A stretch of DNA of 64,000 nt from an uncultured virus (IMG/VR IMGVR_UViG_3300041964_000150) (IMGVR_UViG_3300041964_000150), one strand, 5' to 3'; counted from the first letter of the stretch, positions 388 to 41,185 are shown. Numbers and translations are program-made. Notes: generated by a model from the letters alone, not told the origin.

Positions 388-714
388 TCACTTGCGATTC
401 TTCCGAGGGGATGCGGCGTCATGTTCTAGGGGCAGAGCGCGATCGTCCTCAGCAGCATCTAGCAAGCCAGCTTCACGTAGGGCATTTTCGATCGCCTGCC
501 GTAGAAAATTCGGTCGATGTTCCTTATCTATTTTTTTCAGTGCGGCGAGTACATCTTCATGCAGTTTGACCGCAACGGGAGTCGGCACCAGCGGGCGATC
601 GCCCACTCTCGGCTTAGGTGGAATGTTATGCGAGTTTGGGTTTGACCCCTTGCCCCGTGTTTTTGGTGGGTTCAGCTTCGCAGAATCCGCGTTTGATTTT
701 TTAACTCTTGGCAT
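388..714 (-). CDS. Ribbon-helix-helix (CopG-like) DNA-binding protein, candidate repressor of the cassette array
   Basis: PVAVKLHEDVLAALKK..RPNFLRQAIENAL has the strand-helix-helix pattern; divergent from the first repeated promoter. Confidence 0.6.
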   Translation of the reverse strand: MPRVKKSNADSAKLNPPKTRGKGSNPNSHNIPPKPRVGDRPLVPTPVAVKLHEDVLAALKKIDKEHRPNFLRQAIENALREAGLLDAAEDDRALPLEHDAASPRKNRK

Positions 715-748: not shown

Positions 749-870
749 TTACTAACGGTTTACCATTAGTAATCTTCACACATTCTTTATACAACTTCAT
801 CCTAAATATACGGCTTATTAGTGGTAAACCATTAATAATGGACTCACAACCGAAAAACACAAGGGAGTTC
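749..870 (+). promoter_or_regulatory. Repeated promoter unit, copy 1 (two 24-bp near-palindromic operators 66 bp apart, then RBS)
   Basis: TTACTAACGGTTTACCATTAGTAA (749-772) and TTATTAGTGGTAAACCATTAATAA (815-838), then AAGGGAG. Confidence 0.85.
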
Positions 871-875
871 AAACC

Positions 876-1283
876 GTGTCTAAATTGCTCTACTCGATCG
901 CCGCAATTCGCCGCCTATTAAAGCTGCCGCAAACTGCGAAGATTCACGTTCAGAACTGGTTTAAGGTCTTGTGGGTATGGGTCGAAGGACAGCGGCCAAC
1001 ATTGATCAGCAAATTTGCTCTTAAGTGCCATTTTGTCGAACATCGTCAAGTGGCCGCGCGATCGCTATTTGTAGAGCAGTTCCACAGCAATATTTATTTT
1101 GTCAGCCATCCCAACGAAGATAAATCGCGTCGGCGCGTCCAGCTCTTTACAGGTGGTTTAACCTGCCAGTGCGAAGACTTCCAAGCGCAGGCGCAGGTAA
1201 TTGGCCGCGCGTGCTGTAAACACGCTTATGCGGTGCTGAATCATTTAGGTTTTGATTCACTTTCCGCCTATATCGGCACCTAA
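876..1283 (+). CDS. SWIM zinc-finger protein
   Basis: CQCEDF...CCKH motif at the C-terminus; RBS upstream. Confidence 0.75.
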   Translation: MSKLLYSIAAIRRLLKLPQTAKIHVQNWFKVLWVWVEGQRPTLISKFALKCHFVEHRQVAARSLFVEQFHSNIYFVSHPNEDKSRRRVQLFTGGLTCQCEDFQAQAQVIGRACCKHAYAVLNHLGFDSLSAYIGT

Positions 1284-1334
1284 TGCAGCGCGATCGAATA
1301 TCTCAGTCAATCCCTAATCTTGGAGAGTTACCCA

Positions 1335-1580
1335 ATGTCAACAGCAACTTTAACCGCTGATCAGATCGCCTCAATCCTGGCAGATACAGAATCACGCTAT
1401 CGCTTCACAAATCCAGCGTTGATCATGCCTCTGAAGGGAAGTATCAGCGACATTGAGAAAACTTTTGGCAGCAGAAAATTTTTGATCGCTGCCTTGCAGG
1501 GGCAAACCTGCTGGACCGTCTATCAGAATGATTCGCTGCTAGTGGCTGGGCTATCTCCAGACAAATTGCTGAATAGCTAG
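1335..1580 (+). CDS. Hypothetical protein
   Basis: ORF with GGAGAG RBS in cassette 1. Confidence 0.6.
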   Translation: MSTATLTADQIASILADTESRYRFTNPALIMPLKGSISDIEKTFGSRKFLIAALQGQTCWTVYQNDSLLVAGLSPDKLLNS

Positions 1581-1617
1581 CGCGATCGGAATTGTAATTA
1601 AACGCGAGGAAATCGAT

Positions 1618-1890
1618 ATGTTTGCCATTACAAAGCAAGAACTAAAATCGCTCAAAATGCGCCAAGAGATCAACCGCTTGACCGCTGGCGTAATGAAGCT
1701 TGATCCGATCGCAATTACAGATGAAGTTTCAATCTGTCGTGATGACGGCTGCATTCTCTGGGCAACGTATGAAGATCAGAGTTACCAGATCGATCCGAAT
1801 AAGGTCTATCAGGGATATTGGGTCTTGCTGGGCAATCCTGGACAGACAGCAGCTACCAGAATTTTGGACGCGCTAAACACGATCGCATAG
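1618..1890 (+). CDS. Hypothetical protein
   Basis: ORF with GAGG RBS, followed by a terminator. Confidence 0.65.
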   Translation: MFAITKQELKSLKMRQEINRLTAGVMKLDPIAITDEVSICRDDGCILWATYEDQSYQIDPNKVYQGYWVLLGNPGQTAATRILDALNTIA

Positions 1891-1905
1891 GCAGATTTAA
1901 CCATC

Positions 1906-1937
1906 AGTAGGGGTGATCGGATCACCCCTACTTTTTT
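1906..1937 (+). terminator. Intrinsic terminator
   Basis: AGTAGGGGTGAT-CGG-ATCACCCCTACT followed by a T-run. Confidence 0.85.
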
Positions 1938-1947
1938 ATGTCAATCT

Positions 1948-2185
1948 CCTCAAAATCGCCCCTAGAACGGCTCTACGGGTTTCTAGGTCATATCCTACCT
2001 AATCAGAACTAACCGACCTTACAGGCGATTTTAAGGCCATCTCAGGACGTTCTTAAAATCCCTCTTACTAATGGTTTACCACTAAAAACCTTCATACAGT
2101 CTTTATATAACTTCATCCTAAATATACGGTTTATTAGTGGTAAACCATTAATAATAGATTCACAACCGAAAAACACAAGGGAGTT
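1948..2185 (+). repeat. Repeated unit, copy 2 (hairpin element, double operator, RBS)
   Basis: AAAATCGCC...GGCGATTTT element at 1952-2032; operators at 2065-2088 and 2131-2154. Confidence 0.9.
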
Positions 2186-2188
2186 TAA

Positions 2189-2380
2189 GTGTATCCATTC
2201 ACACCAGAGCAGCAAAAATTCATCGACTCAGATCAAGGTAAGCGGCGATTGGCTGGCTATCAATTGATCGATGTAACAGCTCTTAAGGTTGCACTATTCC
2301 AGCAGTGCGATTCAGAGGGAAAGATCTACATTTTGGCACTCTCTGACGATGGCTCGCCTGGAGAAATGCGAGTCAAATAA
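2189..2380 (+). CDS. Hypothetical protein
   Basis: GTG start directly after the RBS of the repeat unit. Confidence 0.55.
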   Translation: MYPFTPEQQKFIDSDQGKRRLAGYQLIDVTALKVALFQQCDSEGKIYILALSDDGSPGEMRVK

Positions 2381-2418
2381 ACCCCTAGAAAACTTCGATC
2401 GACATCCTAAAAAAAATC

Positions 2419-2733
2419 ATGAATGCACAGCAAGTAGCTCAAACGATTCTGCGGCAGCTTGGCGGATCAGGCAGACTCGCATCAATGATCGGTGCTTACA
2501 ATTTTGCTCACTCAACAGATCCGGACGGTTTCAGCGTGCAATTTAGGTTCAAGGGTTCACGGGTTGCAAATTTTGTAAAAATCACTCTCTCACCTGACGA
2601 TTGCTATGCGATCGAGTTTGGAATGATTCGCAAAACTGCCTATGAACAGGGCAAATGTCTGCAAATGATTTATGCGGATCAGCTCATCGAAATTTTTGAG
2701 AATCATACAAACTTGCGGCTGAGATTGTTCTAG
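2419..2733 (+). CDS. Conserved phage/plasmid early protein (QLGG motif)
   Basis: AQTILRQLGG...MIGA...V.ITL..DD.Y pattern recalled from small phage early proteins. Confidence 0.6.
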   Translation: MNAQQVAQTILRQLGGSGRLASMIGAYNFAHSTDPDGFSVQFRFKGSRVANFVKITLSPDDCYAIEFGMIRKTAYEQGKCLQMIYADQLIEIFENHTNLRLRLF

Positions 2734-2757
2734 TCATCAACTATCACGAATCCACAA

Positions 2758-3104
2758 ATGAAGACTCAAACATTGCGCGAATTTACACAGCTTCCTGAAG
2801 ATGCGTTTTCCTATGCTGAGATTGCTTTTTGCTTCCTAGCGCAGTAGATGAGTGCTTATGGAGGTTGGGATACAGCAGGGGATATAACGACTTTTGGCGC
2901 GATCGTAATGATGACAGCAAATTTGTTTCTAGAGACACGCGCGACGGCTATTACTTTGGCTGGCAAGCCGCACTAGAAGCTTCGCAGCAATTCGATCCAC
3001 GATGGCATGAACTGCCAGCGGTCGATATCGAGATATTAAAAAATTCTCCTCATTTTGACTGGCAAGCTTTCCAGACTTGGGAGAATCGGCATATTACGGT
3101 CTAA
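2758..3104 (+). CDS. Hypothetical protein (one probable frameshift near 2830)
   Basis: ATG 2758 (MKTQTLREF) joins the 2829-3104 frame across a T-run. Confidence 0.45.
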
Positions 3105-3126
3105 TCGATCGAGCAATAGTCAGCAG

Positions 3127-3156
3127 TAGGGGCGATACCAATCGCCCCTATTTTTT
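3127..3156 (+). terminator. Intrinsic terminator
   Basis: TAGGGGCGAT-ACCA-ATCGCCCCTA followed by TTTTTT. Confidence 0.85.
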
Positions 3157-3167
3157 ATGTCAACCTC

Positions 3168-3400
3168 TCTCAAAATCGCCCCTAGAACGGCTCTACAGGT
3201 TTCTAGGGGCGATATTACCAGGACATCTCAGATCGACCTTACAGGCGATTTTAGGGCCATCTCAGGACGTTCTTAAAATCTCCTTACTAATGGTTTACCA
3301 CTAAAAACCTTCATACAGTCTTTATATAACTTCATCCTAAATATACGGTTTATTAGTGGTAAACCATTAATAATAGGTTTAAGACCACACAAAAGGGATT
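3168..3400 (+). repeat. Repeated unit, copy 3
   Basis: Hairpin element at 3172-3252; operators at 3284-3307 and 3350-3373. Confidence 0.9.
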
Positions 3401-3476
3401 CAAACAGATGACCGCACCGCATCGCGGATCTGGCCGTTAGTTCCTATCAGTTCTCTATCCACAATTTCAGCGAATC

Positions 3477-4395
3477 ATGAGCAGCAAAACCAGCAAAAAG
3501 CAAGCGATCGATAAGAATCAACTGCTGACAGACAAGATCATTAAATTGATGGAGGATGGCGTTAAACCCTGGGTAAAGCCTTGGTACTCGATCGGGTATC
3601 AAAATCTGATATCAGGTCATCAATATCGCGGCGTCAACCCAATGTTATGCGCGTTCGATTCAATGGTCTATGACTACAATTCGCCCTACTTCGTAGGGCT
3701 ATCAGCAGCTAAAGAGCGCGGCTGGATTGTGAAGAAAGGGATCTAAGTCTACTTGGTTGCGTTGGGGCGGCACTTTCGCTAAAGAGACTGAAGCAGAGGA
3801 CGGCTCAACTTCGAAGAATTTTTCTCTTGCGCCAAGTGGCTGCAAGTGTTCAATTCCGATTGCCTTGACGATTCTGAGGCACGCAACAAGATCGCGGATC
3901 ACGTTAAAACGCTGCCAGCACCTAACAAGGCGCCTCGAATTATGACCGCTGACAAGTTCGTTGAAGCGCAGCGGGCAACGATCAAACATATCGGCAGCAC
4001 GGCTTGCTATTCACCGCTGAGTGATTCGATCGCGATGCCAGCTTACGAAGACTTCATCAGTGCTGAGGGTACTATGCCACATTGATTCATGAGCTAACCC
4101 ATTGGACAGGGCACAGCAGCAGATGCGATCGCGATCTGTCCGGTCGGTTTGGTACGCAGAAATACGCCTATGAGGAGCTGATCGCAGAACTGGGCGCCGC
4201 ATTCACTTGCAATACTCTGGGCATCTCTAGCGCGATCGAGAATCATGCCAGCTATCTCGATAACTGGCTAGCAGTTCTGAAGGGCGATAACAAGGCATTC
4301 CTTAGAGCATCCTCAGCAGCAACGAAAGCATCGATGTTCTGCTAGCGAATGCTGGCTTGATTGAGGAAGAAAGCGATCAATCTCAATCGGCGTAA
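3477..4395 (+). CDS. ardC: ArdC-like ssDNA-binding/zincin anti-restriction protein (four apparent frameshifts)
   Basis: KPWVKPW, YRGVN, VKKG, VFN, ACYSPLSDSI.MP, IHELTHWTGH, YAYEELIAELGA and HASYL..WL motifs are spread over successive frames. Confidence 0.9.
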
Positions 4396-4402
4396 GGGCA
4401 GA

Positions 4403-4434
4403 AGGTTAGGCCATCCGATCGGATGGCCTAACCT
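4403..4434. terminator. Perfect 32-bp palindrome, likely terminator
   Basis: AGGTTAGGCCATCCGATCGGATGGCCTAACCT. Confidence 0.7.
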
Positions 4435-4670
4435 CCTCAAAATCGCCCCTAGAACGGCTCTACAGGGTTTCTAGGTCTATCCATACCTGATCAGGACTAA
4501 CCAACCTTACAGGCGATTTTAAGGGCATTTCAGGCAATCCTTGAAATCTCTCTTACTAGTGGTTTACTACTAATAATCTTCATACAATCTTTATACAACT
4601 TCATCCTAAATATATGGCTTATTAGTGGTAAACCATTAATAATAGGTTTAAGACCACACAAAAGGAGTTT
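4435..4670 (+). repeat. Repeated unit, copy 4
   Basis: Hairpin element at 4439-4520; operators at 4553-4576 and 4619-4642. Confidence 0.9.
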
Positions 4671-4676
4671 CGACCG

Positions 4677-4937
4677 ATGGCAACCACACTTGAGCAAGAC
4701 TTCGCGCTTCAGTCCGTACTCATGCAACACGATGTTGAGCTACAGCAGATCAAACCGATTCGCGGCGTTCAGTGTTATCGCATTGTGAACACTGATCCAT
4801 CAGGCAGGACTGAGCAGGACGATCGCTTTGCTTGGGGTATCGCTGAACTGGTTGCACCTGAGCGCTGGGAAGTGCTTAAGAATGGCTGGCATTCCTTCCT
4901 CACTCTGCAAGCGGCGATCGAGTTCATTATGGGCTAA
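4677..4937 (+). CDS. Hypothetical protein
   Basis: ATG after the AAGGAG RBS of the repeat unit. Confidence 0.7.
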   Translation: MATTLEQDFALQSVLMQHDVELQQIKPIRGVQCYRIVNTDPSGRTEQDDRFAWGIAELVAPERWEVLKNGWHSFLTLQAAIEFIMG

Positions 4938-5011
4938 CTCTCAACCCATTGCGCTAGGGCGATCGCTCGATCGCCCCTAGAACACTCATCAACCTATCAG
5001 GAATTAAATCA

Positions 5012-5305
5012 ATGTCTGACAATATGCCGATCGTAAAAGTTACTACTGCATCAGGTCACTCTTGGACTACCAATGTCGCCGCACAGGTCACTGAGGCAGA
5101 AGCAAAACGGTATTTTATGGGCGCACGGGTTGACATCAGCAGCGATCCATATACCGAAAAGATGGATGTTGTAGTCAAGGTTGAATTCACTCCAGCACCA
5201 CAACCGATCGCCGTTGCCGTGACTTACGGCTGTGATAACTGTGGCGGCGAAGTTGATACAGACGAAGTGCTTTGCAAACCCTGTAAAGAGAAGTTCAGAA
5301 GATAA
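5012..5305 (+). CDS. Hypothetical protein with C-terminal CxxC...CxxC
   Basis: CDNC...CKPC motif; AGGA RBS. Confidence 0.65.
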   Translation: MSDNMPIVKVTTASGHSWTTNVAAQVTEAEAKRYFMGARVDISSDPYTEKMDVVVKVEFTPAPQPIAVAVTYGCDNCGGEVDTDEVLCKPCKEKFRR

Positions 5306-5342
5306 CCCATCTGAACAACCCGATCGATCGGCTAACCAATCC

Positions 5343-5462
5343 CCTCAAAATCCCCTCTATACGGGCGATCGGGTTGTTCAGATGGGTATCAGGTCGATCG
5401 GGTTTCTAGAGGCACCCTACAGGCGATTTTCAGGGCATTTACTAACGGTAAACCATTAAAAC
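5343..5462 (+). repeat. Partial, divergent repeat unit with a single operator
   Basis: AAAATC...TACAGGCGATTTT at 5347-5430; operator TTACTAACGGTAAACCATTAAAAC at 5439-5462. Confidence 0.75.
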
Positions 5463-5474
5463 TGAGGCTGTATC

Positions 5475-5912
5475 ATGACTACTCTGGAATTACTGACGGC
5501 TACTGATATCGAAAATTTTGCGAATCAACATCGACATCTATCGGCGGAATATCGCAATTTGGCCGCGATCGCCCAGCAGGTTAGATGTCAGATTGACGCC
5601 ATCTATAACCCAATTTTCGATCGCTATCAGTTTGTTGACGATGAAGGCAGCCCGATCGCAACTCATCAAGAGCTGTATCTATGCCCTGACGATGCAGCAT
5701 TCGAGCGCTATGTTACAGAATGCCATGCGGCGATCAAGGCTGCTGGTTTTGATGTGGAATTTGGGATCTGTCCGGCATTAACTGCCGAGCATAACGCACG
5801 CATGAAGCGGCAAGAAATCATCGGCAAGATGTGCGAGCTAATGGGTATGGAAGTCTATCGCGATGATCTGCAAGAAAAGCTTTTTCAGTTGTTTCTCAGC
5901 ATGACCCGCTAA
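5475..5912 (+). CDS. Hypothetical protein
   Basis: ORF with GAGG RBS. Confidence 0.7.
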   Translation: MTTLELLTATDIENFANQHRHLSAEYRNLAAIAQQVRCQIDAIYNPIFDRYQFVDDEGSPIATHQELYLCPDDAAFERYVTECHAAIKAAGFDVEFGICPALTAEHNARMKRQEIIGKMCELMGMEVYRDDLQEKLFQLFLSMTR

Positions 5913-5926
5913 TAGGAGTTTAACCA

Positions 5927-6322
5927 ATGTCGCTCACTCTAAAATTTTCCTCCAGTTCAGATGCTCAAGCCGCTTATGATGTTTTCTTCGCTAACAGTCG
6001 CGGCGGCGAACTGTGTTCGATCGCTCTGGACTATTCCAACGGCACGATCGAGATCGGTGATTGGCTCGCAGGATTGCGGCTGGAGATGCCCGATCCTGCT
6101 CCGATGGCATTAAATCTTGTGTGCCGCTGGCAAGAAATGCAGCTTAAATTTGCCTCAGTAGAAGCTGCTGAGACGGCATTCGAGGATTATTTTGAAGGCG
6201 ATAAAAGCGCTGAGCTGTATTGCTCGGAACTGAAGCGCAGAGATGCTGCGATCGAGCTTACTGGCTGGGCAGATGATCTCGATCTAGATATCCCGATCGG
6301 CTGTATCGAAATTTATATCTAA
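5927..6322 (+). CDS. Hypothetical protein with an internal duplication
   Basis: LKFSS.SDAQAAYDVFF...IEIGDW is echoed by LKFASVEAAETAFEDYF...IELTGW. Confidence 0.7.
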   Translation: MSLTLKFSSSSDAQAAYDVFFANSRGGELCSIALDYSNGTIEIGDWLAGLRLEMPDPAPMALNLVCRWQEMQLKFASVEAAETAFEDYFEGDKSAELYCSELKRRDAAIELTGWADDLDLDIPIGCIEIYI

Positions 6323-6339
6323 CTTCTCTCTAATCCCTC

Positions 6340-6572
6340 TCTAAAATCCCCTACAACGGGCGATCGGTCCGTTCTAGGGGATTCCCTCTATTCACTCTCA
6401 AACCGTCCTTAAACTGGCTTAAAAGGGCATTTCAGGCAATCCTTAAAATCTCTCTTACTAGTAGTTTACTACTAAAAACCTTCACACAATCTTTATACAA
6501 CTTCACTCTAAATATATAGTTTATTAGTGGTAAACCATTAATAATAGGTTTAAGACCACACAAAAGGAGTTC
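6340..6572 (+). repeat. Repeated unit, copy 5
   Basis: Degenerate hairpin element; operators at 6455-6478 and 6521-6544. Confidence 0.9.
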
Positions 6573-6577
6573 TTCAG

Positions 6578-6952
6578 ATGTCCGCATTCATCGTTTCCTA
6601 TAACCACATCAACACTATTTGCAATTACATCAACCGTCATCAGATTTTGCACAAGTTTGTGACTCAGGATGAAGCGGAAGCGATCGGGCGGCTGTGGATG
6701 GCTGAGAACGTTAAGAGCGTAAACAATCGCTATAGCGAAGACGATATTGAACCGCTGTACTGTTTCAGTCGAATCGATGTGAGCCACATCACACCAATTC
6801 AATTCATTAAGCTGCTGGACTGCTTGGAGTATCAAAGCTGTGAGCATGACGACTATCGAGAATCGGAAGCTTACATCATGCTTTCCCGCTATCGATACGG
6901 AGCGATCGGCATGATCGAGGGCTACCAATCGGCAGCGTGGGCGATCGGGTAA
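6578..6952 (+). CDS. Conserved hypothetical plasmid/phage protein
   Basis: MSAFIV...HI...ENVKSVNNRY...YQSCEH; RBS from the repeat unit. Confidence 0.7.
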   Translation: MSAFIVSYNHINTICNYINRHQILHKFVTQDEAEAIGRLWMAENVKSVNNRYSEDDIEPLYCFSRIDVSHITPIQFIKLLDCLEYQSCEHDDYRESEAYIMLSRYRYGAIGMIEGYQSAAWAIG

Positions 6953-7021
6953 CTTGCAGTAAAAAAAGCCGATCGCGAATCGCGATCGGCTTCCCTAAAT
7001 TTCAGCTATCCAAACAGTATC

Positions 7022-8946
7022 ATGCTAGCCACAAAACTACTCGCCGCTTTAGAACAGGTTAAGGCGACCGTTCTCAAGCCATCAACTAAAACGCGATCGC
7101 TTCTGAAGGATCACCCTGAATTGCTTTGCGTTCATCTAGAGGCGAACGGCGAAAGACTGACGATCACTGCAACCGACCTTAAAAAGTTTTCTCAAGCAGA
7201 TGCGAGCAACGATCGCTACTGGCATCAGGAGATCGGATCGTTTGCTTGCCTAGTGCCCTTCGAGCTGTTTTATCGCCTGATTCAAGCGATGAAGCAGCTC
7301 GATATCGGCTTAGATTTTATTGCCGAAAAGCTGGTGATCACTGCGTCATCTCCAAAGCTCGAATACAACATCAACTGTCTGCCCCTAGAACATTCGATCT
7401 TTAAGTCGATCGACAGCGGGCAAAAAACTATCGACTATGAGTTTCCTTTCGCGCCCGTTCTCAAAGCGCTGCAAATTGTCTCTAAGGGTTGCTACAAAGA
7501 GGACGGCTGCCAGAATCTACAGGGCATTCACCTGAAGATTAAAGATAGCCTGCTAACGATCGAGGCTAGCGACGGCGATCACATCATTAGATACTGGCAG
7601 CAGCTCGAAGACGCGCCGAACTGTGACGAAGTGATCGATCGCGGCATCGTTGCCCAACTTGCCAAGGCCAAAGCTGACACACTACGGCTTGAGTTGAGTG
7701 CAGCAATGGCAACGTTTATTGCTGGCGATTGTAGGGTCACTACGGTTATCGGGGATCTAGAGTATCCCAACACTGACAAGGCGATCGCCAAAGCGATACC
7801 AGACAGCGAGCCTATCGCCGTTGATAGGCGCCTGCTGAAGGATGCGATCGATCGGGTTGCTACTAAAGCTGAACCGATCATCCTGATAGAAGCTGATCCG
7901 GTCGATTGCTGCCTGCGGCTGAGCGGCTGCAATGGTGAGGAAACAATTCCCGTAAATGTGTCGCAGTGGGCTGCAACCCATATCGATCGCACGATGCTCG
8001 ATGTGCTTGGCAAGCTGGGCAGCTCTGAAGTAATGCTCTGTTTGGGTCGGACAACAGAAGGTGATCCACGCATGACCACGATCGAGACATTAGGCGGCGA
8101 TCGGTTTTTCGTTGGGGCGATGGGTGTCAAGTGTTCAGATCGGACCCTACCGACCCCTAAAATCGCCCCTACAACGGCTACAACGGGCGATAGTGGGGAA
8201 GTGGCGATCGAACCACTGGAAACCCCTACAGAAACCCCTACAACGGCCACTACAGGCGATAGTCAGGCAATAGGACAACCGGATCATCCTGAATCGGGAA
8301 CACTTGAACCGGACAGCTCAGAGGCATTCGATCGCCTGCGAGAACAACTTAAAGGAACGGTTAAAACTCCTATGCCAGATTATGTGATCTCTGTTGAGGA
8401 GATGAAACAAACGGTAGTGATCAGCTTGCGCCCTGATTCTGCTGCTGAAATTGTGGGCGGCATGATGCAAGTCATTCTGCAAGAAGATCTTGACATGAGC
8501 AAGCCACTACAAGGCCGCTTCTGCCTGATCCATTGCGCCTATGTCGAAGGGGATGAACTGAAGGAAAGCGATCGCGGCTTGATCGATATCGGTCTGCTGC
8601 CTGACAGTGCGCCCAGTGGCGCGATTCTTGGTTATGTCAAGATCAAGGCAACCAAAGTCTATAAATCCGAAACAGATTGGCGATCGGATTTTGAGAAGGG
8701 GGTTCACGACTACGACTGCTCGCTGAAGGAATTCAGCAGGATCACAGGGTCAAGGGTAAGGTTTGCGGGGTTGTTGTCGAGCAACCCATAATGCTACGTG
8801 ATCCGGTCTTCGGAGTTGAGGGAGGCGTTAGCGCAGGCTTCTGGCTACCTAATTCGCCTCAAGACACATCGGCAGTGCGGGCAGTATTCGAGGCAACGCG
8901 CGGCGTTGTGGATGTCGATCGACTGATACCAGTTGACTCTGAATAG
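7022..8946 (+). CDS. Divergent DNA polymerase III beta-clamp-like protein fused to an ASCH-like domain (frameshift near 8768)
   Basis: VHLEANGERLTITATDL, LQGIHL...LTIEASDGDH and EYPNTD match DnaN landmarks; C-terminal ISLRP..A..IV.G...IHCA...GAILGYV...P..L..P...G...GFW. Confidence 0.7.
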
Positions 8947-9448: not shown

Positions 9449-9736
9449 TACATTGCTCCAAGTGATAAGGACTGTAGCGAACCTCTCGAACCTCTAGGGA
9501 TCTCACTTGGGTTGCTGGCATTAGTGTACCCAAAATTTATATCTAGGGCTGCGTACTTTAATTCAAACTTGCGAATTAAAATATTCGGTCTGAAATTTTA
9601 TCGGTTCTCTACACTCTGTACAAGGCTCTATAAGGCTCGATCGAGAATTTGGCTACATCCCCACACAAAAATAGAAACACCCCTACAACGGCCACTACAG
9701 GCGATTCTAGGGGATGTTTTTAGGGTGGGGAGGTTT

Positions 9737-10969
9737 CTACCACATATCCCACTGAACGGCACGATCGGGGCATCCATCAGGACGGAATAACAGGATATAT
9801 CGCCCGTTGCTATCGAGAATCGGATCGTATTGTTTGGCTTCGTTGTCCCAGTTGCCTGCGATCGCGAAGCAGTTGATATGGCAGGGGTGAAACGCCATAT
9901 CGTCATCTTCCCAAATCAGGGTAAGCAGCGTTTCGTAGCTCATGTTCTGAGGGATCTTCTGGGTTCGCTCACCCTTCCAGAAGTGCTGATATTGCACAGC
10001 AGCGATATGGTTGCGCAGGGCAAATGTGCCCGCTGGCAGGTTGGCGTAAAGTAGTCGCGCCATGTTTCAAAGTAGATCGGGTCGTTCTCACCCAAGCGCG
10101 TGTCATAGCACCAGTTCACGAAGTCCTGAGCGACTGGGAAAGTGTTTTCGTAGACCTGTTTATAGGGGCGAAAGTAGTCGGTGCGCTCGCGCTGTCCAGG
10201 CGTCGTAAACCTCCATACCGTGAGACTCTGCGGCGTAGCGCGTCTTCAAGTATGCTTCCCGCATCGTTGGATCTTTACGAAAGCGGCGAGCTTTGTTCAA
10301 GACCGCTTCACCGATCGCCGCTTTCTCGCGATCGCTCATTGCAGCGATCTGACGGTTGGACAGGTGCAACGGCTGCACCCAAACCCCTTCGACGCCAATG
10401 GTTTCCAGCGTCTTACAGAGTTCGGTCGGATCGCCAACCCACTCATCAACGCAGGGATTGATCCCAACACAGACCCGATGGCCGAGCGATCGCGCGTGTT
10501 CGATGAACCGGAAGCGCTCTTGTGCTGAGGGTGCGCCTGGTTCAACCCGCTGCAACACTTCTTCGTTCATGGTTGCGATCGAAATATAGAAGACGATCGG
10601 CGGCATGAACTTCATTGCTTCATAGCCCGCTTTGCCGCACTTGGTTTGAATCGAGTAGGGCAAGCCTAATTCAGTCATTGCTTCGAGAATTGGCAGGGCG
10701 ATCGCCTCGTTGCTCGATGCAAACGGGTCAACGTGATTACTAATTACGGTCGGATAGCCAGCGTGCAGCAGTCGCGCTGCATAGGTCGATTTTTCCTGAT
10801 GGTGTGCCAGCATCCCCATGATTTGAGGAGTGTTCGCCGCGCGGTTGGGGCTGTTCAGGTTGGCAAAACAGTAACTACAGCCCATGCTGCACCAGTTCAT
10901 CGACATTTCGAGGGGAAGGCAGCCGTTACCAAATAGGCCACCCCAATAAACGCTTAAACTCTCGCTCAT
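9737..10969 (-). CDS. Radical SAM protein (two apparent frameshifts near 10198 and 10050)
   Basis: CSMGCSYC (CxxxCxxC), DPF, IQTK, EPGAPS..ERF, spore-photoproduct-lyase-like; continues via GQRERTDYF...FVNWC into the 9737-10063 frame. Confidence 0.9.
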
Positions 10970-10980
10970 GATCTGTACTC

Positions 10981-11859
10981 CTATGGTTTTGGCTTCGATC
11001 GGGTGGTCGCTGCTTTTCTGAGCTGCGCCATCGACGGACGTTTGTAAGTTGGCGCTGCTGCCGCGCGATCGAGAATGCTGCCAGCCGATCGAACTCTGCC
11101 CGGATTAGGTTCAGCAGGGGCGGCAGGGGCGGCAGGTGGTGCTTTCTGCTTTGGTGCAGGCTGACGATAGGGCGGATGATTCGCTCGCGAGTCGAGTTCA
11201 AGCCGCAGGTTCTCGCGAAATTCTTCTAAGCCGAATTGGACATTAGCGCGAGGGATTTTGCCCGCTGCCAGTGCATTGCTGAGCTTGTCCGGTTCATCCC
11301 ATTTCGACTGAACATTAGCAGGCGATCGTCGGTTGATGTGGAAGTGAACTACATCAGCCAGTGAATAGCCCTCATTCAGACCAATGCCCACAGGCGTATC
11401 GCCGTTGCTCCATCGATAGGGGCTTGGCTTGGTATAAGACGGAGCTTTTTGCTGGCGTCCCTGCACGGCCAGGGCGAGCAGATCATCGTCGCTAGCCTTG
11501 AGCAGTTTTTCGATTCCAGCGATCGATCGCTCTTTTGCGTTGTCAGCGGGTCTACCGTGATCGGTGCCTTCTGCCAGCTTGCCCCACCCCTTCGGATGCG
11601 CCAATCGCTCGGTATAAGCTGCGGCAGTTGTTTTTGATTTTGAGGTTGATTTTGCCTTTGTCTGCTTACCTTTCGATTTAGCGGGCTGCGGTGTGGCGAT
11701 CGGGGTTTCGGGTTGCTTCGCTGCAACCTGCTGATCTTTGGGCATGAACTGCCCTGCTTTCCCCGGTGGTCCAACGTGACCTTTGGGATAGCGTGGATGT
11801 GCCTCAGCTTCAAATTTGCGTGAAGAAGCCAGCTTTTTAAGCGCTTTGGATTTGCTCAC
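10981..11859 (-). CDS. Basic phage protein with N-terminal HPR...G.F motif
   Basis: FEAEAHPRYPKGH..GKAGQF; GTG start overlaps the upstream stop. Confidence 0.65.
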   Translation of the reverse strand: MSKSKALKKLASSRKFEAEAHPRYPKGHVGPPGKAGQFMPKDQQVAAKQPETPIATPQPAKSKGKQTKAKSTSKSKTTAAAYTERLAHPKGWGKLAEGTDHGRPADNAKERSIAGIEKLLKASDDDLLALAVQGRQQKAPSYTKPSPYRWSNGDTPVGIGLNEGYSLADVVHFHINRRSPANVQSKWDEPDKLSNALAAGKIPRANVQFGLEEFRENLRLELDSRANHPPYRQPAPKQKAPPAAPAAPAEPNPGRVRSAGSILDRAAAAPTYKRPSMAQLRKAATTRSKPKP

Positions 11860-12755
11860 GATTCTGCCTCATCCTGAAACGCTGCATGATGCTTCAAAGT
11901 GGCCTGATCGCTGGTAATGCCGATTTTCTGCTTCCATGCCTCAAGTTGCTCCCAGCGTCGGTGACTCAAGATCACGCAGATAGGAAACTGAGTCTGTTGC
12001 TTTCTGTCGGGCGCGTCGGCATTGAACTGCGCCCCACCTTCAGTAACTTCTGGTTCAGGATCATCGTCGATCGCGTCGTCGTCCTCATCCTCTGCCCCTA
12101 GAACATCTTCATCCTCATCTTCTTCGTCGCGTGCCTCGAAACTCATCATCACTGCTTCAACCTGCTCGATCGCTTCCTGATGTTCAGCAGCAGCGGCCTG
12201 AGCTTCGGGAGTTGCAGCAGCAGCACTCACCCGCTCAGTGAATCGGCTCAAGAATGCGGCTCGCTGTTCTGGGTCCGGCATCGCCACTTCTTGAGCAGCG
12301 GGCTTGAGTCTGCTGAGAATCGCTGCCTTCATGCCTTCGTTGATGACGCCGCGAGCCTCTGTATTGTTGAGGCGCACCATTGCCGCCTTGTGTAGGGGTT
12401 CATCCAGTTCTGAGGGCATAACCGGAACCTTCAGCCAGTAGCCAGAGGTGAAACGCTCTTTAACCGCTGGTTTAGGGTTCGGCTCGATCGCCTGATACGC
12501 AGCCCATTCAGCCGCAAACCAACCTTTATTCTGCTGCATCAGCCATTCAGCCGCTAAAACGCGCCCATGACCCCCGATCAGCTTGCCGTTGCTGGTGTTG
12601 TAGCTGGGCAGCTCGCACCATCCGGCATAGAGAATCGATCGCGCCGTCTTGATCACATCGCCATCCGGCTCAAGCGAGTGAATGCGGGCATTTTCCGCAT
12701 GGAACGAGGTCAACAGTTCAGCCGTTGACTTGACCAGAATTTCTGTTTTAGGCAT
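11856..12755 (-). CDS. ParB/Srx N-terminal-domain-like protein with acidic linker
   Basis: ENARIH...SILYAGW...KLIGGHGRVLAA. Confidence 0.75.
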   Translation of the reverse strand: MPKTEILVKSTAELLTSFHAENARIHSLEPDGDVIKTARSILYAGWCELPSYNTSNGKLIGGHGRVLAAEWLMQQNKGWFAAEWAAYQAIEPNPKPAVKERFTSGYWLKVPVMPSELDEPLHKAAMVRLNNTEARGVINEGMKAAILSRLKPAAQEVAMPDPEQRAAFLSRFTERVSAAAATPEAQAAAAEHQEAIEQVEAVMMSFEARDEEDEDEDVLGAEDEDDDAIDDDPEPEVTEGGAQFNADAPDRKQQTQFPICVILSHRRWEQLEAWKQKIGITSDQATLKHHAAFQDEAES

Positions 12756-13620
12756 CGATCGCCTCCTCTGCAAAGGCCGGATGTCCGGTTACATACGCAT
12801 CAGTATCTTTGGTGATGTCGCGGCCACGCTTCCATTTATTCCAACGCTTCCACTCTGACCAGGGCACAGCGAGCGCGAGCGAATGCACGGGTGGGGGAGC
12901 TTTGGGCGCAGCAGGTGCCCGTTCCTCTTCCTCCTCATATTCATCCTCATCCTCTGGCTGCCAGGTCGCCTCGTCGTCGTCCTGATATTCGCGAACATCG
13001 CCGCTGGCATAGTCGGCAGTATCGGGGTCGGGTGCGTCCTGCACTCGATAATCGATCGCGTCCGATCGCTCAAACCGCTGTTTGTCTTGAAACTCGGTTT
13101 CTGGCTCGCTGGCAGCAGTAGGGGCAGTTGGTTGAGGTTTCGCCGCTTCTTTGCCAGTTGCCAGCGCTCGCAGTCGATCGCCCAGTCCGGCCAGCAGCGA
13201 TCGCAGTTTTTCGGGGTCGTCTTTGCCCTGTGCCTCTGTATCGTTGAGGCGCAACAGCATCGCGTTGTGTTCTTCGTCGTTGAGGTCTACTCGCAGCGTC
13301 AGGCACTCGCCCCAATATTCGGGAGTAAACCGGACCAGGGCGGCAGCATCGTCGCCATGCACCGATCGCCACAGTGAGGCACGATGCTCGAACCAGGCGA
13401 TCGCCTGATTGCCCAGCCATTCAGCCGCGAGAACACGATGATGCCCTCCTACTAGAAGGTTGTTGCGCAGGTTCAGGGTAATGGGTTCAATCCAGCCGCA
13501 CTCAAGCAGCGAGATAGCGAGGCTGGGAACGTCAGGGTGAACGTTGGGGTTGAGGGGATGGAAGGCCGCTTTTAGTCCAGCGGTGGGCATCCAACCGACA
13601 TCGGCTTTAGAGATAGCCAT
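12748..13620 (-). CDS. ParB/Srx N-terminal-domain-like protein (paralogue)
   Basis: HPLNPNVH...SLLECGWIEPI...LVGGHHRVLAA; start placed at MAISK. Confidence 0.75.
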   Translation of the reverse strand: MAISKADVGWMPTAGLKAAFHPLNPNVHPDVPSLAISLLECGWIEPITLNLRNNLLVGGHHRVLAAEWLGNQAIAWFEHRASLWRSVHGDDAAALVRFTPEYWGECLTLRVDLNDEEHNAMLLRLNDTEAQGKDDPEKLRSLLAGLGDRLRALATGKEAAKPQPTAPTAASEPETEFQDKQRFERSDAIDYRVQDAPDPDTADYASGDVREYQDDDEATWQPEDEDEYEEEEERAPAAPKAPPPVHSLALAVPWSEWKRWNKWKRGRDITKDTDAYVTGHPAFAEEAIDA

Positions 13621-13700
13621 GCGATCGATCGGGAAAATGGGGGACGCGCTTAGAATGCCCAGCAAACCCTTTATAGTCGAGAATTCTGGCAGTTTGCGCC

Positions 13701-13976
13701 CTAATTGGTTTGAAGCCCGATCGCCCCTACGTCCTGCATTGCAAGTGATGCGCAGGTTAGGCGAAGTCTCTCCGCCTCGTCAGCCCAAATCTTCCAAACT
13801 TCAGACACGGTAATCAGGCGATCGATTCTCCGCTCGATCGCCTCAATCTCCCCAAATAATCGCTGAATTGCGCTTTCCCTCTTATCGTTATCAAGTTGCC
13901 GCCTTAGCCAGAGGTATTCACCACCGCTTATATACCACTGCGCCAACTCTTGTTTAAGCCGATCGTCATCCTGCAT
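13701..13976 (-). CDS. Hypothetical protein
   Basis: ORF with GAGGA RBS. Confidence 0.55.
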   Translation of the reverse strand: MQDDDRLKQELAQWYISGGEYLWLRRQLDNDKRESAIQRLFGEIEAIERRIDRLITVSEVWKIWADEAERLRLTCASLAMQDVGAIGLQTN

Positions 13977-14035
13977 TAATCATCCTCAGAAAATTCATCA
14001 CGATCGCGAAGTCGCCTGAGAATACTTCGATCGAT

Positions 14036-14077
14036 AAAACAAATCCCTCAAGCCAAGCGGTTTGAGGGATTTGTTTT
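14036..14077. terminator. Intrinsic terminator hairpin
   Basis: AAAACAAATCCCTCAAGCC-AAGC-GGTTTGAGGGATTTGTTTT. Confidence 0.8.
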
Positions 14078-14212
14078 GAACCCTTAGATTGTCCATCCGC
14101 AGAGTAACGACCCAAAGCCTGAGAAACTTACCGTTACACTGCGTAGCAGATATTCGATCGAACAACTTTCTAGATTATGCCTGACAAACATCCCTTTGGC
14201 TGCACTACTTTA

Positions 14213-14920
14213 TCAATCATCCTCATCGGCCATTAACTCAGCCATTGGCCGCACAGCTTGCAGCAGGGCATTAATTTCTTCAACGGGCAAGCCCGCTTCA
14301 AGCTTCAATTCCTGAATCGCAGCGATGCCCAGCTCGCGCACAGTGCGATCGCCCGTGACTCTCAGCGCCATTCGTAGAAAATTCATCACGATCGCGAGCT
14401 GCCGCTGAATGTCGCCCATGCGATCGAGGTGCATCGCAGCATTGGCAAGGTTCACTGTGCTATTGAAGCAGGCAGCGAGGCGACCAATATCAAAGCCAGC
14501 TAGCCGCAGCTTCAGATCTTCAACAAACTCAGGGCTGAGCTGTCCTTCTTCCGCCAGCATCTCAGCCGCCTGCATCAGCGTATCCGATTCTTTGTCAAGC
14601 CTGATATCGCCTTCGATAATGCCCAGCAGCTTCGCCTGCACCAGCGCGAAGTTAGCACGAAGGATGTCGCCTGGTGCGTGCTGCTCGATCGCCTGATAGC
14701 GGGCAAGAGATGCGCCCGTGAGAACCTTGCCATACAGACCATGCTTCATTGCGGCCTGATTGCCAGGGCGAGCCTTTTCAACCTGTTTTGGTGGGGTCAG
14801 GTGCGCGTGCGATCGACAGTAACCCGATCCAAGGTGATCGGTGCCTGCGCCCTTCGCCTGACAGCAGGGCTTTTTGTTCTTGGTGGCTGCACCGCAATGC
14901 TTTTTCTTGTCGAACTTCAC
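14213..14920 (-). CDS. Terminase small subunit-like protein
   Basis: CGA.TK..KPC...GTDHLGSGYCRSH and PGNQAAMKHGLY motifs typical of phage TerS. Confidence 0.7.
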   Translation of the reverse strand: MKFDKKKHCGAATKNKKPCCQAKGAGTDHLGSGYCRSHAHLTPPKQVEKARPGNQAAMKHGLYGKVLTGASLARYQAIEQHAPGDILRANFALVQAKLLGIIEGDIRLDKESDTLMQAAEMLAEEGQLSPEFVEDLKLRLAGFDIGRLAACFNSTVNLANAAMHLDRMGDIQRQLAIVMNFLRMALRVTGDRTVRELGIAAIQELKLEAGLPVEEINALLQAVRPMAELMADEDD

Positions 14921-21880: not shown

Positions 21881-22711
21881 TTAGAAATCTAGATATTTGC
21901 TGCTGCTGTCATCGGGACAGGCTTCCAAATATACATTTGTGACGGCGATCGAGCTGTGGCCGAGCGAATCACGGACTAGATGAATGGGTGCGCCTGCTGC
22001 AAGTGAGTGTTGAGCGTGCGCGTGGCGCAACCAGTGCGGCGAAACTTTATCGCCCAGACCAGCGGCGAGCGATGCCCGCTTGATGATTGCCCAGGATTGA
22101 TAGCGATTGAGGTTGAATACCAAGGCCGCAGGATTCGGCGGCGACGGCTGCAAGGGCTGCAACTGCTGCCAAGCCGGAACGGGCACCAGAACCGTGCGAA
22201 GTTTTTCGCCTTTGCCCGTGATCGCTGCCTGCACCGCTCCATCTCCGCGCGTCCAAACATTTGCCCAGCTCAGCGAGCAAGCCTCACTGATCCGGGTGCC
22301 CGTTGCGTAGAGAAACAGAACCAGGGCGCGATCGCGACCGGGGGGAGTTGCGGCGATCAATGCCTGTACCTGAGTTTTGAGCAGAAACCTTTGCGCGAGA
22401 ATCGCTTTTGCTCTGGGCAGTCGCAGGGCAGCGGCGATATTGAAGGGCAAATAGGCAAGTTTTGCTGCGAAGGTATAGAGCGATTTCACCGCATTGATTT
22501 TGCGGCGTAAAGTGGCAGGCTTTAGCTGGCGATCGATCAGCGTATCTTGATAGTGCTGGAGGTCAGCAAGCGTGGTTGATTTTAGCGGTTTGGCAACGAT
22601 GCGCAGAAAGTGCGAAATGTCGCGCTGGTACTCGGTTCTAGTCGATGCGGGTCGGCCATGCAGCCACATCATAACCAAGCGATCATCGTCTGAAATTAGG
22701 GCAATTTCCAT
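21881..22711 (-). CDS. Tyrosine recombinase (XerC/D-like integrase/resolvase)
   Basis: YATGTRISE, GKGEKLR, SPHWLRHAHA, LGHSSIAVTNVY catalytic residues. Confidence 0.95.
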   Translation of the reverse strand: MEIALISDDDRLVMMWLHGRPASTRTEYQRDISHFLRIVAKPLKSTTLADLQHYQDTLIDRQLKPATLRRKINAVKSLYTFAAKLAYLPFNIAAALRLPRAKAILAQRFLLKTQVQALIAATPPGRDRALVLFLYATGTRISEACSLSWANVWTRGDGAVQAAITGKGEKLRTVLVPVPAWQQLQPLQPSPPNPAALVFNLNRYQSWAIIKRASLAAGLGDKVSPHWLRHAHAQHSLAAGAPIHLVRDSLGHSSIAVTNVYLEACPDDSSSKYLDF

Positions 22712-22897
22712 GAGAGAGGCTTAACAAAAGTGTTGTTTTGTTGAACCGTTCTACCTTGACTCAGCAGGGGTTGCGATCGCCTCATCAGATCCGCTCAAAC
22801 TTGGCAGGGTGCAGATGGGGATACTAAGTAATAATCGCTTCAGTTTTAAGACCGATCGCTTCAAAAATTTTTCGCCCCTTCGCTTCAAAGGTTCGCT

Positions 22898-23089
22898 ATG
22901 TCTGGTAAATCGCGCATCGATCAAGCGCTTGGAAAGGTTGAAGATCTCAAGATCGAACTGCGGGCAGCAAACACCGGGGATTTATCAGAGGACTGCTGGC
23001 ACAATCTCAGGGAGGCTCGCATTGCGATCGAGACGGCAGAGTATCATTTGGAGCGGGCTTCAGTTTCGCAACCTAAAACTGATGGATGA
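22898..23089 (+). CDS. Hypothetical small protein
   Basis: ORF overlapping the kinase start. Confidence 0.45.
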   Translation: MSGKSRIDQALGKVEDLKIELRAANTGDLSEDCWHNLREARIAIETAEYHLERASVSQPKTDG

Positions 23090-23708
23090 AGAAACACTCA
23101 GCGAAGTGGTTCACCATTTGCGATCGCCGCTCGCAAATATCAAGATCGCCGCTCAACTTCTACGGACCATCCCCGAAGCCAAATACTTAGACCTGATCGA
23201 GCAGGAATGTGCTGAGGGGTTGCAGCTTGTAGAAAACCTGCTCGCGCTGTATCGATGTGGCGATCGCCCGTTTGTTCTCCAGCCGATTCAGCTTCAATTT
23301 TGGTTAGAGCGGATGATCGCGGCGATCGCCCCTAAGCTTGAGAGTCGCTGTCTGAATGTCGAACTTGATTGCCAGGTCAGCGAAATCGTTGGGGATGCTG
23401 AGATTCTGGGGCAGGTTGTGCGCGAGCTACTGCACAACGCCTGTAAATACGCTCCGCCGAATTCCCTAATCGAGATTACAGCCAGCGCTGAGCGGATTCG
23501 CATCGCAAACGAAGGTGATTTGCCGCCTGAAGTTTTGCCGCGACTGTTCGATCGCTTCTACCGTGTGCCGGGGGGTGATCCTTGGAATCAAGGCGGATCG
23601 GGTCTGGGGTTGGCAATGGCGCAAGAAATGTTGACCCGCATGGATGCCGCGATCGTCGTCGGCAGTTTTGCGGGCTGTGTGATCTTTGAGATCCAGCTAC
23701 ATATCTAA
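23082..23708 (+). CDS. Sensorless histidine kinase (HisKA + HATPase only)
   Basis: HHLRSPL H-box, ELLHNACKY N-box, LFDRFYR F-box, GSGLGLA G2-box. Confidence 0.9.
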   Translation: MDEETLSEVVHHLRSPLANIKIAAQLLRTIPEAKYLDLIEQECAEGLQLVENLLALYRCGDRPFVLQPIQLQFWLERMIAAIAPKLESRCLNVELDCQVSEIVGDAEILGQVVRELLHNACKYAPPNSLIEITASAERIRIANEGDLPPEVLPRLFDRFYRVPGGDPWNQGGSGLGLAMAQEMLTRMDAAIVVGSFAGCVIFEIQLHI

Positions 23709-24688: not shown

Positions 24689-25132
24689 TTAGCATGAGTG
24701 TTCCTTGAAGCGATAGTAAGCCCATTGCTCATTACGGTCGGTTGCCTTAGCGATCGCCTCCCAGTCCTCAAGCGTCATCTTGGTTAGATCGGCATTCTCG
24801 CACCAACGGTAGTAAGCCCACTGCCGGGGGTTGTTGAAGTCCGCAGCAATCGCGATTGCAATCCAATCTGCTAGCGTCAGCGCGGATAGGGTGATCGTTC
24901 GTTCGAGGGCTGTAACTGGTTTAAGGCAGCATTGAAAACTGCTACAGCAATCTGTGTAGTCCTCATGCTGATTTGCCTTAGAAATTTTTTCAGCATAGGG
25001 CAAAGTATCAAACCAATCCTTCCAGCGCTGATGTCGTTCTGGTTCTGCCATCGGGCAATAGCGAACTGAGTTGTACGGCTGCCCTGTGACGGCAGGGCAG
25101 TTTGCATCGCAGGGGTCAAAATTTGCCATCAT
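24689..25132 (-). CDS. Hypothetical Cys-rich protein
   Basis: Coupled ORF with repeated DW.AIA.A.D.N.QWAYYR. Confidence 0.55.
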   Translation of the reverse strand: MMANFDPCDANCPAVTGQPYNSVRYCPMAEPERHQRWKDWFDTLPYAEKISKANQHEDYTDCCSSFQCCLKPVTALERTITLSALTLADWIAIAIAADFNNPRQWAYYRWCENADLTKMTLEDWEAIAKATDRNEQWAYYRFKEHSC

Positions 25133-27703: not shown

Positions 27704-27707
27704 TAGC

Positions 27708-40919: not shown

Positions 40920-40934
40920 TGATCGCCGCCATTC

Positions 40935-41171: not shown

Positions 41172-41185
41172 GGGCAGATGGTGCG

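Follow-up and report, generated by a model that had tools for sequence, protein, structure and literature searches.

The repeated unit and its cassettes

An array of small-gene cassettes occupies positions 749 to 6,952 of a stretch of DNA from an uncultured virus (IMG/VR IMGVR_UViG_3300041964_000150), of whose 72,526-bp source contig 64,000 nucleotides were analysed; this whole stretch is called the window below. The cassettes stand behind copies of a repeated unit with two palindromic sites, called operators here, and a small gene that is a predicted repressor lies divergently before the first copy. An earlier inspection of the bare sequence, the sequence-only reading, had drawn attention to the repeat. 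From left to right, the locus comprises the following features.

388 to 714, minus strand: predicted ribbon-helix-helix (RHH) repressor gene, 108 aa, divergent from unit 1, with its ATG 34 bp from the first operator
749 to 876, plus strand: unit 1 (U1), operators 749-772 and 815-838, 42-nt spacer, leader and ribosome-binding site (RBS), shared with the divergent repressor gene
876 to 1890, plus strand: cassette 1, SWIM zinc-finger open reading frame (ORF) 876-1283 (PF04434, E=2.9e-6), ORFs 1335-1580 and 1618-1890
1906 to 2036, plus strand: terminator-like site 1906-1932 and GC-rich imperfect hairpin, fold z -2.0 (plus strand) and -2.5 (minus strand)
2065 to 2189, plus strand: unit 2 (U2), operators 2065-2088 and 2131-2154, leader of the unit-1 type
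2189 to 3104, plus strand: cassette 2, ORF 2189-2380, ORF 2419-2733 (phrog_9437), ORF ~2758-3104, split near 2830
3125 to 3256, plus strand: terminator-like site 3125-3152 and GC-rich hairpin, fold z -3.4 (plus strand)
3284 to 3410, plus strand: unit 3 (U3), operators 3284-3307 and 3350-3373, leader of the unit-4/6 type
3477 to 4395, plus strand: cassette 3, ardC (ArdcN and MPTase-PolyVal domains) in four frame pieces
4400 to 4524, plus strand: inverted repeat 4400-4437 and GC-rich hairpin
4553 to 4677, plus strand: unit 4 (U4), operators 4553-4576 and 4619-4642
4677 to 5305, plus strand: cassette 4, ORFs 4677-4937 and 5012-5305, no family found
5305 to 5462, plus strand: partial unit with a perfect 22-bp inverted repeat (5305-5326 / 5366-5387), hairpin element and lone operator 5439-5462, without spacer
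5475 to 6322, plus strand: cassette 5, ORFs 5475-5912 and 5927-6322, no family found
6326 to 6578, plus strand: hairpin and unit 6 (U6), operators 6455-6478 and 6521-6544 flanking a promoter match at 6492-6520
6578 to 6952, plus strand: cassette 6, one ORF of 124 aa
7022 to 8791, plus strand: beta-clamp-like fusion gene, with which the last transcript possibly ends; in a related phage the homologue comes directly after ardC

The repeat itself is as real as the sequence-only reading had claimed: the 24-bp site (consensus TTAYTARTGGT-WW-ACCAYTARWAA) is present in 11 copies at exactly the coordinates given there, as five pairs (749/815, 2065/2131, 3284/3350, 4553/4619, 6455/6521) and a single site at 5439. 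Seven sites fit the consensus exactly, those at 749 and 4553 have one mismatch and those at 5439 and 6455 two; dinucleotide shuffles gave 0 matches in 100, and no further site lies beyond 6544 in the rest of the window. The members of a pair are 66 bp apart in all five units, the downstream site is identical in all five, and alignment of the units, which had been proposed as a check, gave 90-bp cores (site, spacer, site) that are pairwise identical at 76-90 of 90 positions. Each site is made of two self-palindromic 10-mers (YYAYTARTRR), of which the 64 kb contain 16, all within the sites; its symmetry is 11+2+11 about a TT or AA centre, and the two sites of a unit are oppositely oriented. The distance from the second site to the start codon is 34-38 nt in four of the full units and 104 nt in U3, the unit of ardC.

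The element is contained in sequencing runs from biocrust metagenomes of three studies, and U1, U4, the single site at 5439 and U6 recur in independent short-read contigs that differ from the window at 0-10 places, including 4509-4665 (U4) in a run of another study and 5990-6548 (U6) in run X2, both without a single difference. Since several units are covered with few differences by contigs from three studies, the array is not an assembly artefact.

The unit had been described as a fixed succession of terminator, hairpin and double operator, and this description holds for one part: operator, 42-nt spacer, operator and leader with RBS form the core, and only this core is common to all five. A GC-rich hairpin lies upstream of U2, U3, U4, the partial copy and U6, and is missing at U1, where the divergent gene takes the place of hairpin and terminator; T-tailed terminators precede only U2 and U3 (two of the six units), and inverted repeats without a T tail precede U4 and the partial copy. 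Because the hairpin motif also occurs free of operators at 8153-8263, within an ORF, and at 9667-9720, and a similar stretch closes the matching operon of a related phage, the hairpin is a separate element and not a constant part of the unit. The copy at 8153-8263 lies in the linker of the clamp-like ORF as an in-frame Pro/Thr-rich repeat, the one at 9667-9720 between two minus-strand genes, and all CCCTA(C/G)AACGG copies but one are on the plus strand. Minus-strand sigma-70-type matches (9/12) lie between hairpin and first operator, at 2056-2028 for U2 and 3276-3248 for U3; they face the end of the upstream cassette, are weaker in U4, and are possibly counter-promoters, or else due to chance.

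The ardC gene has its place behind U3, though in this assembly it is broken into four pieces, the frame changing near 3740, 3825, 4070 and 4335. Such breaks are frequent in the window, at least 6 of the 21 genes homologous to the related phage, the tape-measure gene included, having frame changes. In run X1, short-read contigs differ from the window by indels at 3695, 3707 and 3734 (net -1), at the first ardC break, and in X1 and X2 alike by one at 8735, inside the clamp-like gene, so the breaks in ardC and elsewhere are taken as probable errors of assembly or sequence, and ardC is probably intact in the field.

About ten ORFs had been put forward as candidate novel anti-defence proteins, and the family searches give this no backing: ardC pieces aside, none falls in a known anti-defence family (Pfam, NCBIfam, PHROG). 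Among the 11 non-ardC ORFs scanned, Pfam recognised one (the SWIM finger), PHROG one (a family of unknown function) and NCBIfam none; PADLOC gave 0/11, as expected of a defence library.

The predicted regulator and the carrier element

Single-sequence searches with the 388-714 protein returned itself only, and homologues were found opposite SWIM genes; a profile of five of them collected 373 proteins. In the PDB, CopG-family RHH proteins made up three of the five matches of this 5-row profile (6iya, E=0.017; 7etr; 6xrw), and Atlas gave MetJ/RHH_1 as its lead (0.89). Helices are predicted at residues 53-60 and 67-82. A dimer model of two copies of residues 20-95 scored 0.52 against 0.00 for the best control, passing a mark that 20 of 30 solved homodimers but no more than 1 of 23 single chains attained, a pass that likeness to solved RHH dimers may drive; contacts agreed to at least 96% between runs at a pLDDT of at least 65. 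In the model, contacts 46-50', 48-48' and 49-47' form an antiparallel ribbon, and helix 70-79 packs against 70-79'. Fold searches with the monomer reached a best Z of 4.5, with nothing at E<=0.001. The protein is predicted by the dimer model to have RHH topology, and it is probably the regulator that reads the sites. The family as a whole (P0015-P0133) comprises 373 cyanobacterial proteins without a Pfam model, with a conserved NPNP motif before the ribbon, and its members often lie beside locus-specific palindromes. Host factors such as LexA, FurA or NtcA were rejected as readers of the site, because the site is absent from the 57 genomes of the relative's host family (0/57, allowing up to two mismatches).

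The carrier has genes for a major head protein, tail fibre, tape-measure protein, terminase small subunit, tyrosine integrase (21881-22711), annealing protein (33361-34245) and an Xre-type (HTH_3) repressor (34659-35033). It also has 115 HIP1 octamers, a sequence linked with cyanobacteria. Head, tail, tape-measure, terminase and integrase genes together with HIP1 mark it by gene content as a temperate-phage-like element of a cyanobacterium and not a plasmid; among the ORFs scanned, in the 64,000 of 72,526 bp covered, there was no relaxase or type IV secretion family, nor was an oriT found.

Several other regions of the window may be recorded. A histidine kinase gene (HisKA, HATPase) at 22809-23708 adjoins the integrase, either as unusual cargo or as a host remnant, and an early-type region at 39701-43211 holds a 2OG-Fe(II) oxygenase gene (AlkB-like Pfam family) and a PAPS-reductase-family gene. 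A radical-SAM gene, two ParB-like genes and small basic proteins at 9737-13665 are kept in the related phage, in which the radical-SAM gene, split in the window, encodes 430 aa; this cluster is similar to DNA-modification loci and could be a second anti-restriction strategy. Membrane-protein genes at 25116-29631 surround the gene of a P-loop ATPase with a membrane anchor (25373-27055; Walker A and B motifs, weak Pfam hints), and the cluster could be a DNA translocase module within a phage; look-alike membrane clusters, as judged by eye, lie near SWIM-ardC operons of other cyanobacterial elements (L105, L107, L136).

Relatives, cassette families and probable recombination

The closest relative available for comparison is a phage contig of 72,295 bp (G681:C3), also in IMG/VR, that has HU, radical-SAM, ParB-like, terminase, capsid, tail and integrase genes in common with the window. 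At the matching place it carries one divergent RHH-like gene (RHH_1, E=0.033, below the cut-off), then a gap with a different 10-mer in two inverted copies that occur nowhere else on the contig, and an operon of two ORFs for which the window showed no counterpart, an intact ardC (301 aa, 55-87% identical to the window pieces) and a clamp-like gene, the gene content around ardC differing between the two phages. The contig has no repeated unit. As this relative has a single RHH-like gene, one palindrome pair and one operon, the five-fold unit is, among the relatives examined, apparently specific to the window's lineage, and the commonness of single switches, rather than a tree, suggests that the single switch is the ancestral state.

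Among fifteen loci with SWIM homologues, a small divergent gene of RHH or helix-turn-helix (HTH) type lies upstream in 10 and is lacking in the other 5, a count that comes without a chance level, several loci being related and three lying in one genome. At 9 of these 10 loci the gap contains palindromes of its own, different from those here. A SWIM homologue of 72% identity lies on a 74.8-kb contig, which is the likeliest true relative.

Searches for the unit itself returned nothing comparable. The exact site and the hairpin motif each had 0 matches in IMG/VR, unit DNA had no match by blastn against plasmids and phages, and the unit was found in 0 of 173 genomes of one cyanobacterial order; a metagenome scan gave 30 loci that had a lone palindrome each, never a pair, and were dismissed as chance. 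IMG/VR scans with the RHH, SWIM and radical-SAM proteins and two alignments confirmed nothing, and the scan with ArdC found the contig of the relative and two unrelated loci without repeats. Five related elements (G810, G669, G704, G790, G745) had no ardC, SWIM gene or repeated unit in the stretches examined, which may be without the early regions. In a set of 57 loci from genomes and plasmids, each at least 10 kb long and some overlapping, four had an exact 20-mer in at least three spaced copies, and none had the double palindrome.

Some other elements deserve separate mention. A cyanobacterial element (L109, 7945-10000 and 3550-7207; L108, 5626-7341) shows the design on a smaller scale, with a duplicated palindromic unit and a three-copy leader ahead of ardC and small genes; upstream of these, an apparently non-coding stretch contains a separate family of structured repeats of ~150 bp. 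The related phage (L102) has two larger inserted genes near the early region (5875-7200 and 13209-14660), possible defence cargo, which by eye look Schlafen/AlbA-like and PIN-like.

Plasmid searches were made with five cassette ORFs and, as a sixth, the SWIM ORF, which had 3 plasmid matches. Homologues of ORF 2419 were found on 812 plasmids (708 of them conjugative) and in 31 phage records, the family being present in phages KVP40, phiM12 and Paride, and those of ORF 6578 on 103 plasmids and in 6 phage records; ORFs 5475, 4677 and 2829 had no plasmid match, and Atlas reached only 0.76 for ORF 5475. Five loci of such homologues were inspected, four of them for ORF 2419. A P. putida plasmid has five repeated palindrome-promoter-leader units, and the gene that directly follows one of them is the ORF 6578 homologue, in the neighbourhood of DUF4942, methyltransferase, SSB, DUF932 and umuCD genes; on an IncI2 plasmid, the ORF 2419 homologue comes first behind one of four repeated units, in which the palindrome lies between -35- and -10-like hexamers; and in KVP40, an 18-mer with three copies stands at the 5' end of the ORF 2419 homologue. 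From these three loci, the ORF 2419 and 6578 families appear to recur in the same kind of cassette on unrelated elements, which is guilt by position. The units of both plasmids are unannotated and head small-gene cassettes (P. putida plasmid L124, 5508-13724, five units; IncI2 plasmid L123, 5628-9008, four units).

Within the array, U2 and U3 are identical over 94 nt, whereas the leaders group U1 with U2 against U3, U4 and U6, and 45 of 91 pairs of informative sites are incompatible. A 246-bp contig of run X3, which belongs to another study, links 1931 to 3151 across 13 shared letters, a step equal to the U2-U3 spacing, and so places a U3-type hairpin directly after cassette 1; its right arm differs from U3 by four letters and one gap over ~124 letters (~96%), where the hairpins of U3 and U2 are 84% alike. 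The mosaic units and this hairpin joint fit recombination between units.

Models for the array and their implications

We read the array, with a probability of about 0.6, as an establishment-type regulon of a cyanobacterial temperate phage, wired by analogy like those of conjugative plasmids. A promoter for the host RNA polymerase would lie within the 42-nt spacer; two RHH dimers would bind each 24-bp site, one site lying upstream of the -35 element and the other over the start point; and the first site would span the promoter of the repressor's own gene, resulting in negative autoregulation. The array would have grown from one ancestral repressor-operator-operon switch through duplication and gene capture, homologous recombination between units deleting, swapping and homogenising the cassettes. 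We hold these parts of the scheme to be likely. Upon entry into a repressor-free cell, all cassettes would be expressed in a burst and then be shut off jointly, in the lysogen as well, and the cargo, consisting of ardC, the SWIM protein, two plasmid-establishment families and orphans, would serve counter-defence or host takeover; to this second half we give slightly less than even odds. The cassettes are in all likelihood co-regulated, and an RHH reading of the operator fits both the RHH gene next to the first site and the palindromic half-sites; derepression specific to entry would follow the plasmid analogy. The sequence-only reading had likewise proposed a co-regulated, recombination-expandable array of establishment type, a proposal that now gains comparative evidence from the mosaic units, the RHH-type gene and the relatives, and that had overlooked both the regulator and the phage nature of the carrier.

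Known systems share parts of this arrangement, among them the CUP regulons, for which Delver and Belogurov (1997) is cited. In the Reg576 system of plasmid p576, each promoter has two operators and each operator binds two dimers of an autoregulated RHH protein, whose targets include ardC (PMC6294495, PMC8708921). The geometry of the window unit matches that of Reg576/EGeRS2 (p576, clade II of the pLS20 family), where operators lie upstream of the -35 and upstream of the RBS, with two subsites each (PMC6294495), and the predicted RHH repressor, ardC (frameshifted in this assembly) as a putative target and variable small genes in several operons are further likenesses (PMC6294495, PMC8708921). 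However, Reg576 subsites are direct heptamer repeats (PMC6294495), whereas those of the window are inverted palindromic 10-mers, and the carrier here, to judge by its capsid, tail and integrase genes, is a phage of cyanobacteria; the likeness is one of arrangement. In R388, ArdK represses PardC and four other promoters, and transcription overshoots after transfer (PMC3937220); in IncN CUP regulons, conserved repeats rearrange, and CUP-CUP recombination has been proposed (PMC5371602). In common with these, the repeats of the window lie at the 5' end of co-oriented small operons (five full units and one partial) with a putative repressor site and promoter (PMC5371602, PMC3937220), and a predicted repressor gene is linked to them with an operator at its own putative promoter, as far as arrangement tells. 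On the other hand, CUP regulons belong to conjugative plasmids of Proteobacteria and the repeats of pKM101 exceed 400 bp (PMC5371602), against ~125 bp here (~250 with the hairpin); the regulator here comes from a cyanobacterial RHH family, and instead of a conjugative plasmid with oriT and relaxase alongside, the carrier is an element with head, tail and integrase genes. A passage of PMC4290620 treats long direct repeats.

Phages offer another parallel in the PeSLs, which shuffle genes of T4-type phages and combine strong sigma-70 promoters with terminators in T4-like myoviruses (PMC2839356, PMC4122927). There, too, small orphan genes lie between repeated units, which in those phages recombine (PMC2839356, PMC4122927), and the ORF 2419 family is found among small genes of KVP40. 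Yet the abstracts on PeSLs do not mention an operator (PMC2839356, PMC4122927), whereas the core of the window unit is a palindrome pair with a linked, predicted repressor gene; and in place of a strong sigma-70 promoter and a terminator stem-loop in every unit, the promoter consensus here is weak, with one unit scoring, and the terminator is inconstant, preceding two of six.

Several observations weigh against the regulon reading. A promoter scan gave 5 sigma-70-type sites where 11.7 are expected by chance, and a plus-strand match within a unit only in U6 (6492-6520, 9/12). The 388-714 protein alone has no Pfam or NCBIfam match, and with a 120-row profile its RHH match weakens to E=0.28 and is outranked by an unrelated hydrolase (0.21). 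At 4 of the 10 SWIM loci with a divergent gene, this gene is of HTH type, in one case (L037) with a similar TACTAA half-site, and the separate Xre repressor at 34659-35033 is another candidate reader of the operators. The X3 joint stops inside the repeat at a depth of 4.5, so that loss of cassette 2 and conversion of U2 are indistinguishable and a deletion is unproven; a second X3 joint, which connects U4 with the leader of ardC, runs through 47 identical letters and is perhaps a chimera made in assembly; and, given the many indels in the window, the identity of U2 and U3 could partly stem from assembly polishing. The relatives with different cassettes between identical units that the sequence-only reading had suggested looking for did not turn up in IMG/VR, plasmids, phages, metagenomes or the 173 cyanobacterial genomes. 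In IncX4 the repeat lies ~400 bp upstream of the ORF 2419 homologue, and a Calothrix plasmid has no repeat at its homologue (one of the four inspected loci). Lastly, ArdC is an ssDNA-binding protein acting in conjugation (PMC7213743), which leaves its role after injection of dsDNA unclear.

The reader of the operators might be another protein, such as the Xre immunity repressor or one encoded in the 8.5 kb of the contig beyond the window; in that case the cassettes would be ordinary lytic early genes, derepressed on induction and on infection. This is the best-placed alternative and still an unlikely one. An HTH_3 repressor is indeed encoded in the window, which covers 64,000 of the 72,526 bp of the contig, and HTH-type genes hold the divergent place at 4 of all 15 SWIM loci, one of them with TACTAA-containing palindromes. 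However, neither a site nor a 10-mer lies near the Xre gene or beyond 6544, the RHH gene begins 34 bp from the first site, and the corresponding place in the related phage is taken by an RHH-like gene with different palindromes.

A shade less likely still, the units could be single-strand promoters or priming signals of the Frpo kind, the two inverted sites forming a long stem on ssDNA with the aid of the upstream GC hairpin, to be used if the element passes between cells or replicates by rolling circle. Like the Frpo/ssi promoters of plasmid leading regions (PMC11541004), they put DNA that can fold into hairpins ahead of small genes of establishment type; folds of U2, U3 and U4 as DNA show the two sites paired (z -4.6 for U2), ArdC binds ssDNA (PMC7213743), and the membrane-anchored P-loop ATPase at 25373-27055 is possibly of translocase type. 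Yet in Frpo the stem pairs -35 and -10 with their complements on the template strand, whereas here site pairing is not conserved across the units, the stem being absent from U1 (both strands) and from the template strand of U6, and most of the putative -10 stays unpaired. Compared with the complement of the downstream site, the upstream one is altered at 2-5 positions but retains palindromic half-sites of its own, the partial copy has a single site, and the ORFs scanned include no relaxase or type IV secretion family, nor was an oriT found.

It is improbable that the region is a decaying prophage with ardC and other genes as pseudogenes and the repeats as relics. The four frame changes in ardC, the one in ORF 2758-3104 and those in at least 6 of 21 homologous genes, the tape-measure gene among them, would suit decay, but the short-read indels at 3695, 3707 and 3734 (X1, net -1) and at 8735 (X1 and X2), the invariance of the downstream site in five of five copies and the presence of the element in runs of three studies argue otherwise. 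Most improbable is an enzyme-driven cassette system with the palindromes as crossover sites of a recombinase (integron-like, or serine-recombinase-like with a 2-bp centre), since the 11+2+11 symmetry with its TT/AA centre and opposite orientation within a unit, the tyrosine integrase 15 kb off (21881-22711) and the mosaic break between core and leader inside the invariant downstream site are set against the lack of a serine recombinase among the ORFs scanned, an integrase homologue in the related phage, which is without the sites, an X3 joint at the terminator, ~130 bp upstream of any site, and a placement of the sites flanking a promoter-like spacer at a fixed distance from start codons.

Under the regulon reading, what would be new is the union of plasmid-type wiring and repeat-driven shuffling on a temperate phage of filamentous-type soil cyanobacteria, each being known separately; in the literature searched, whose reach mostly excluded subscription papers, nothing that describes an array of this type in a cyanophage was found. 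We consider it doubtful, though worth stating, that the phage adopted the logic of a plasmid establishment island as a second switch independent of its immunity repressor, the duplicated operator-promoter acting as a cassette-capturing recombination hub. If so, the cassettes would be drawn from a gene pool common to conjugative plasmids and large phages, the ORF 2419 and 6578 families would consist of widespread proteins for counter-defence or host takeover that have so far escaped recognition, and the cyanobacterial orphans would act by inhibiting restriction or other defences of cyanobacteria. A bolder addition is that the prophage moves from cell to cell by means of the membrane P-loop ATPase, which would explain an ssDNA-binding ArdC.

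Restriction is the main barrier to genetic work in cyanobacteria, and the unit flags a short list of candidate anti-defence genes for these organisms. The ORF 2419 and 6578 families can be tested in E. coli or P. putida, because their homologues occupy the same kind of cassette on common plasmids, and the RHH-operator pair could serve as an orthogonal repressor switch. For the phages themselves, the relative with its single switch shows how such arrays can arise, namely by duplication of one repressor-operator-promoter.

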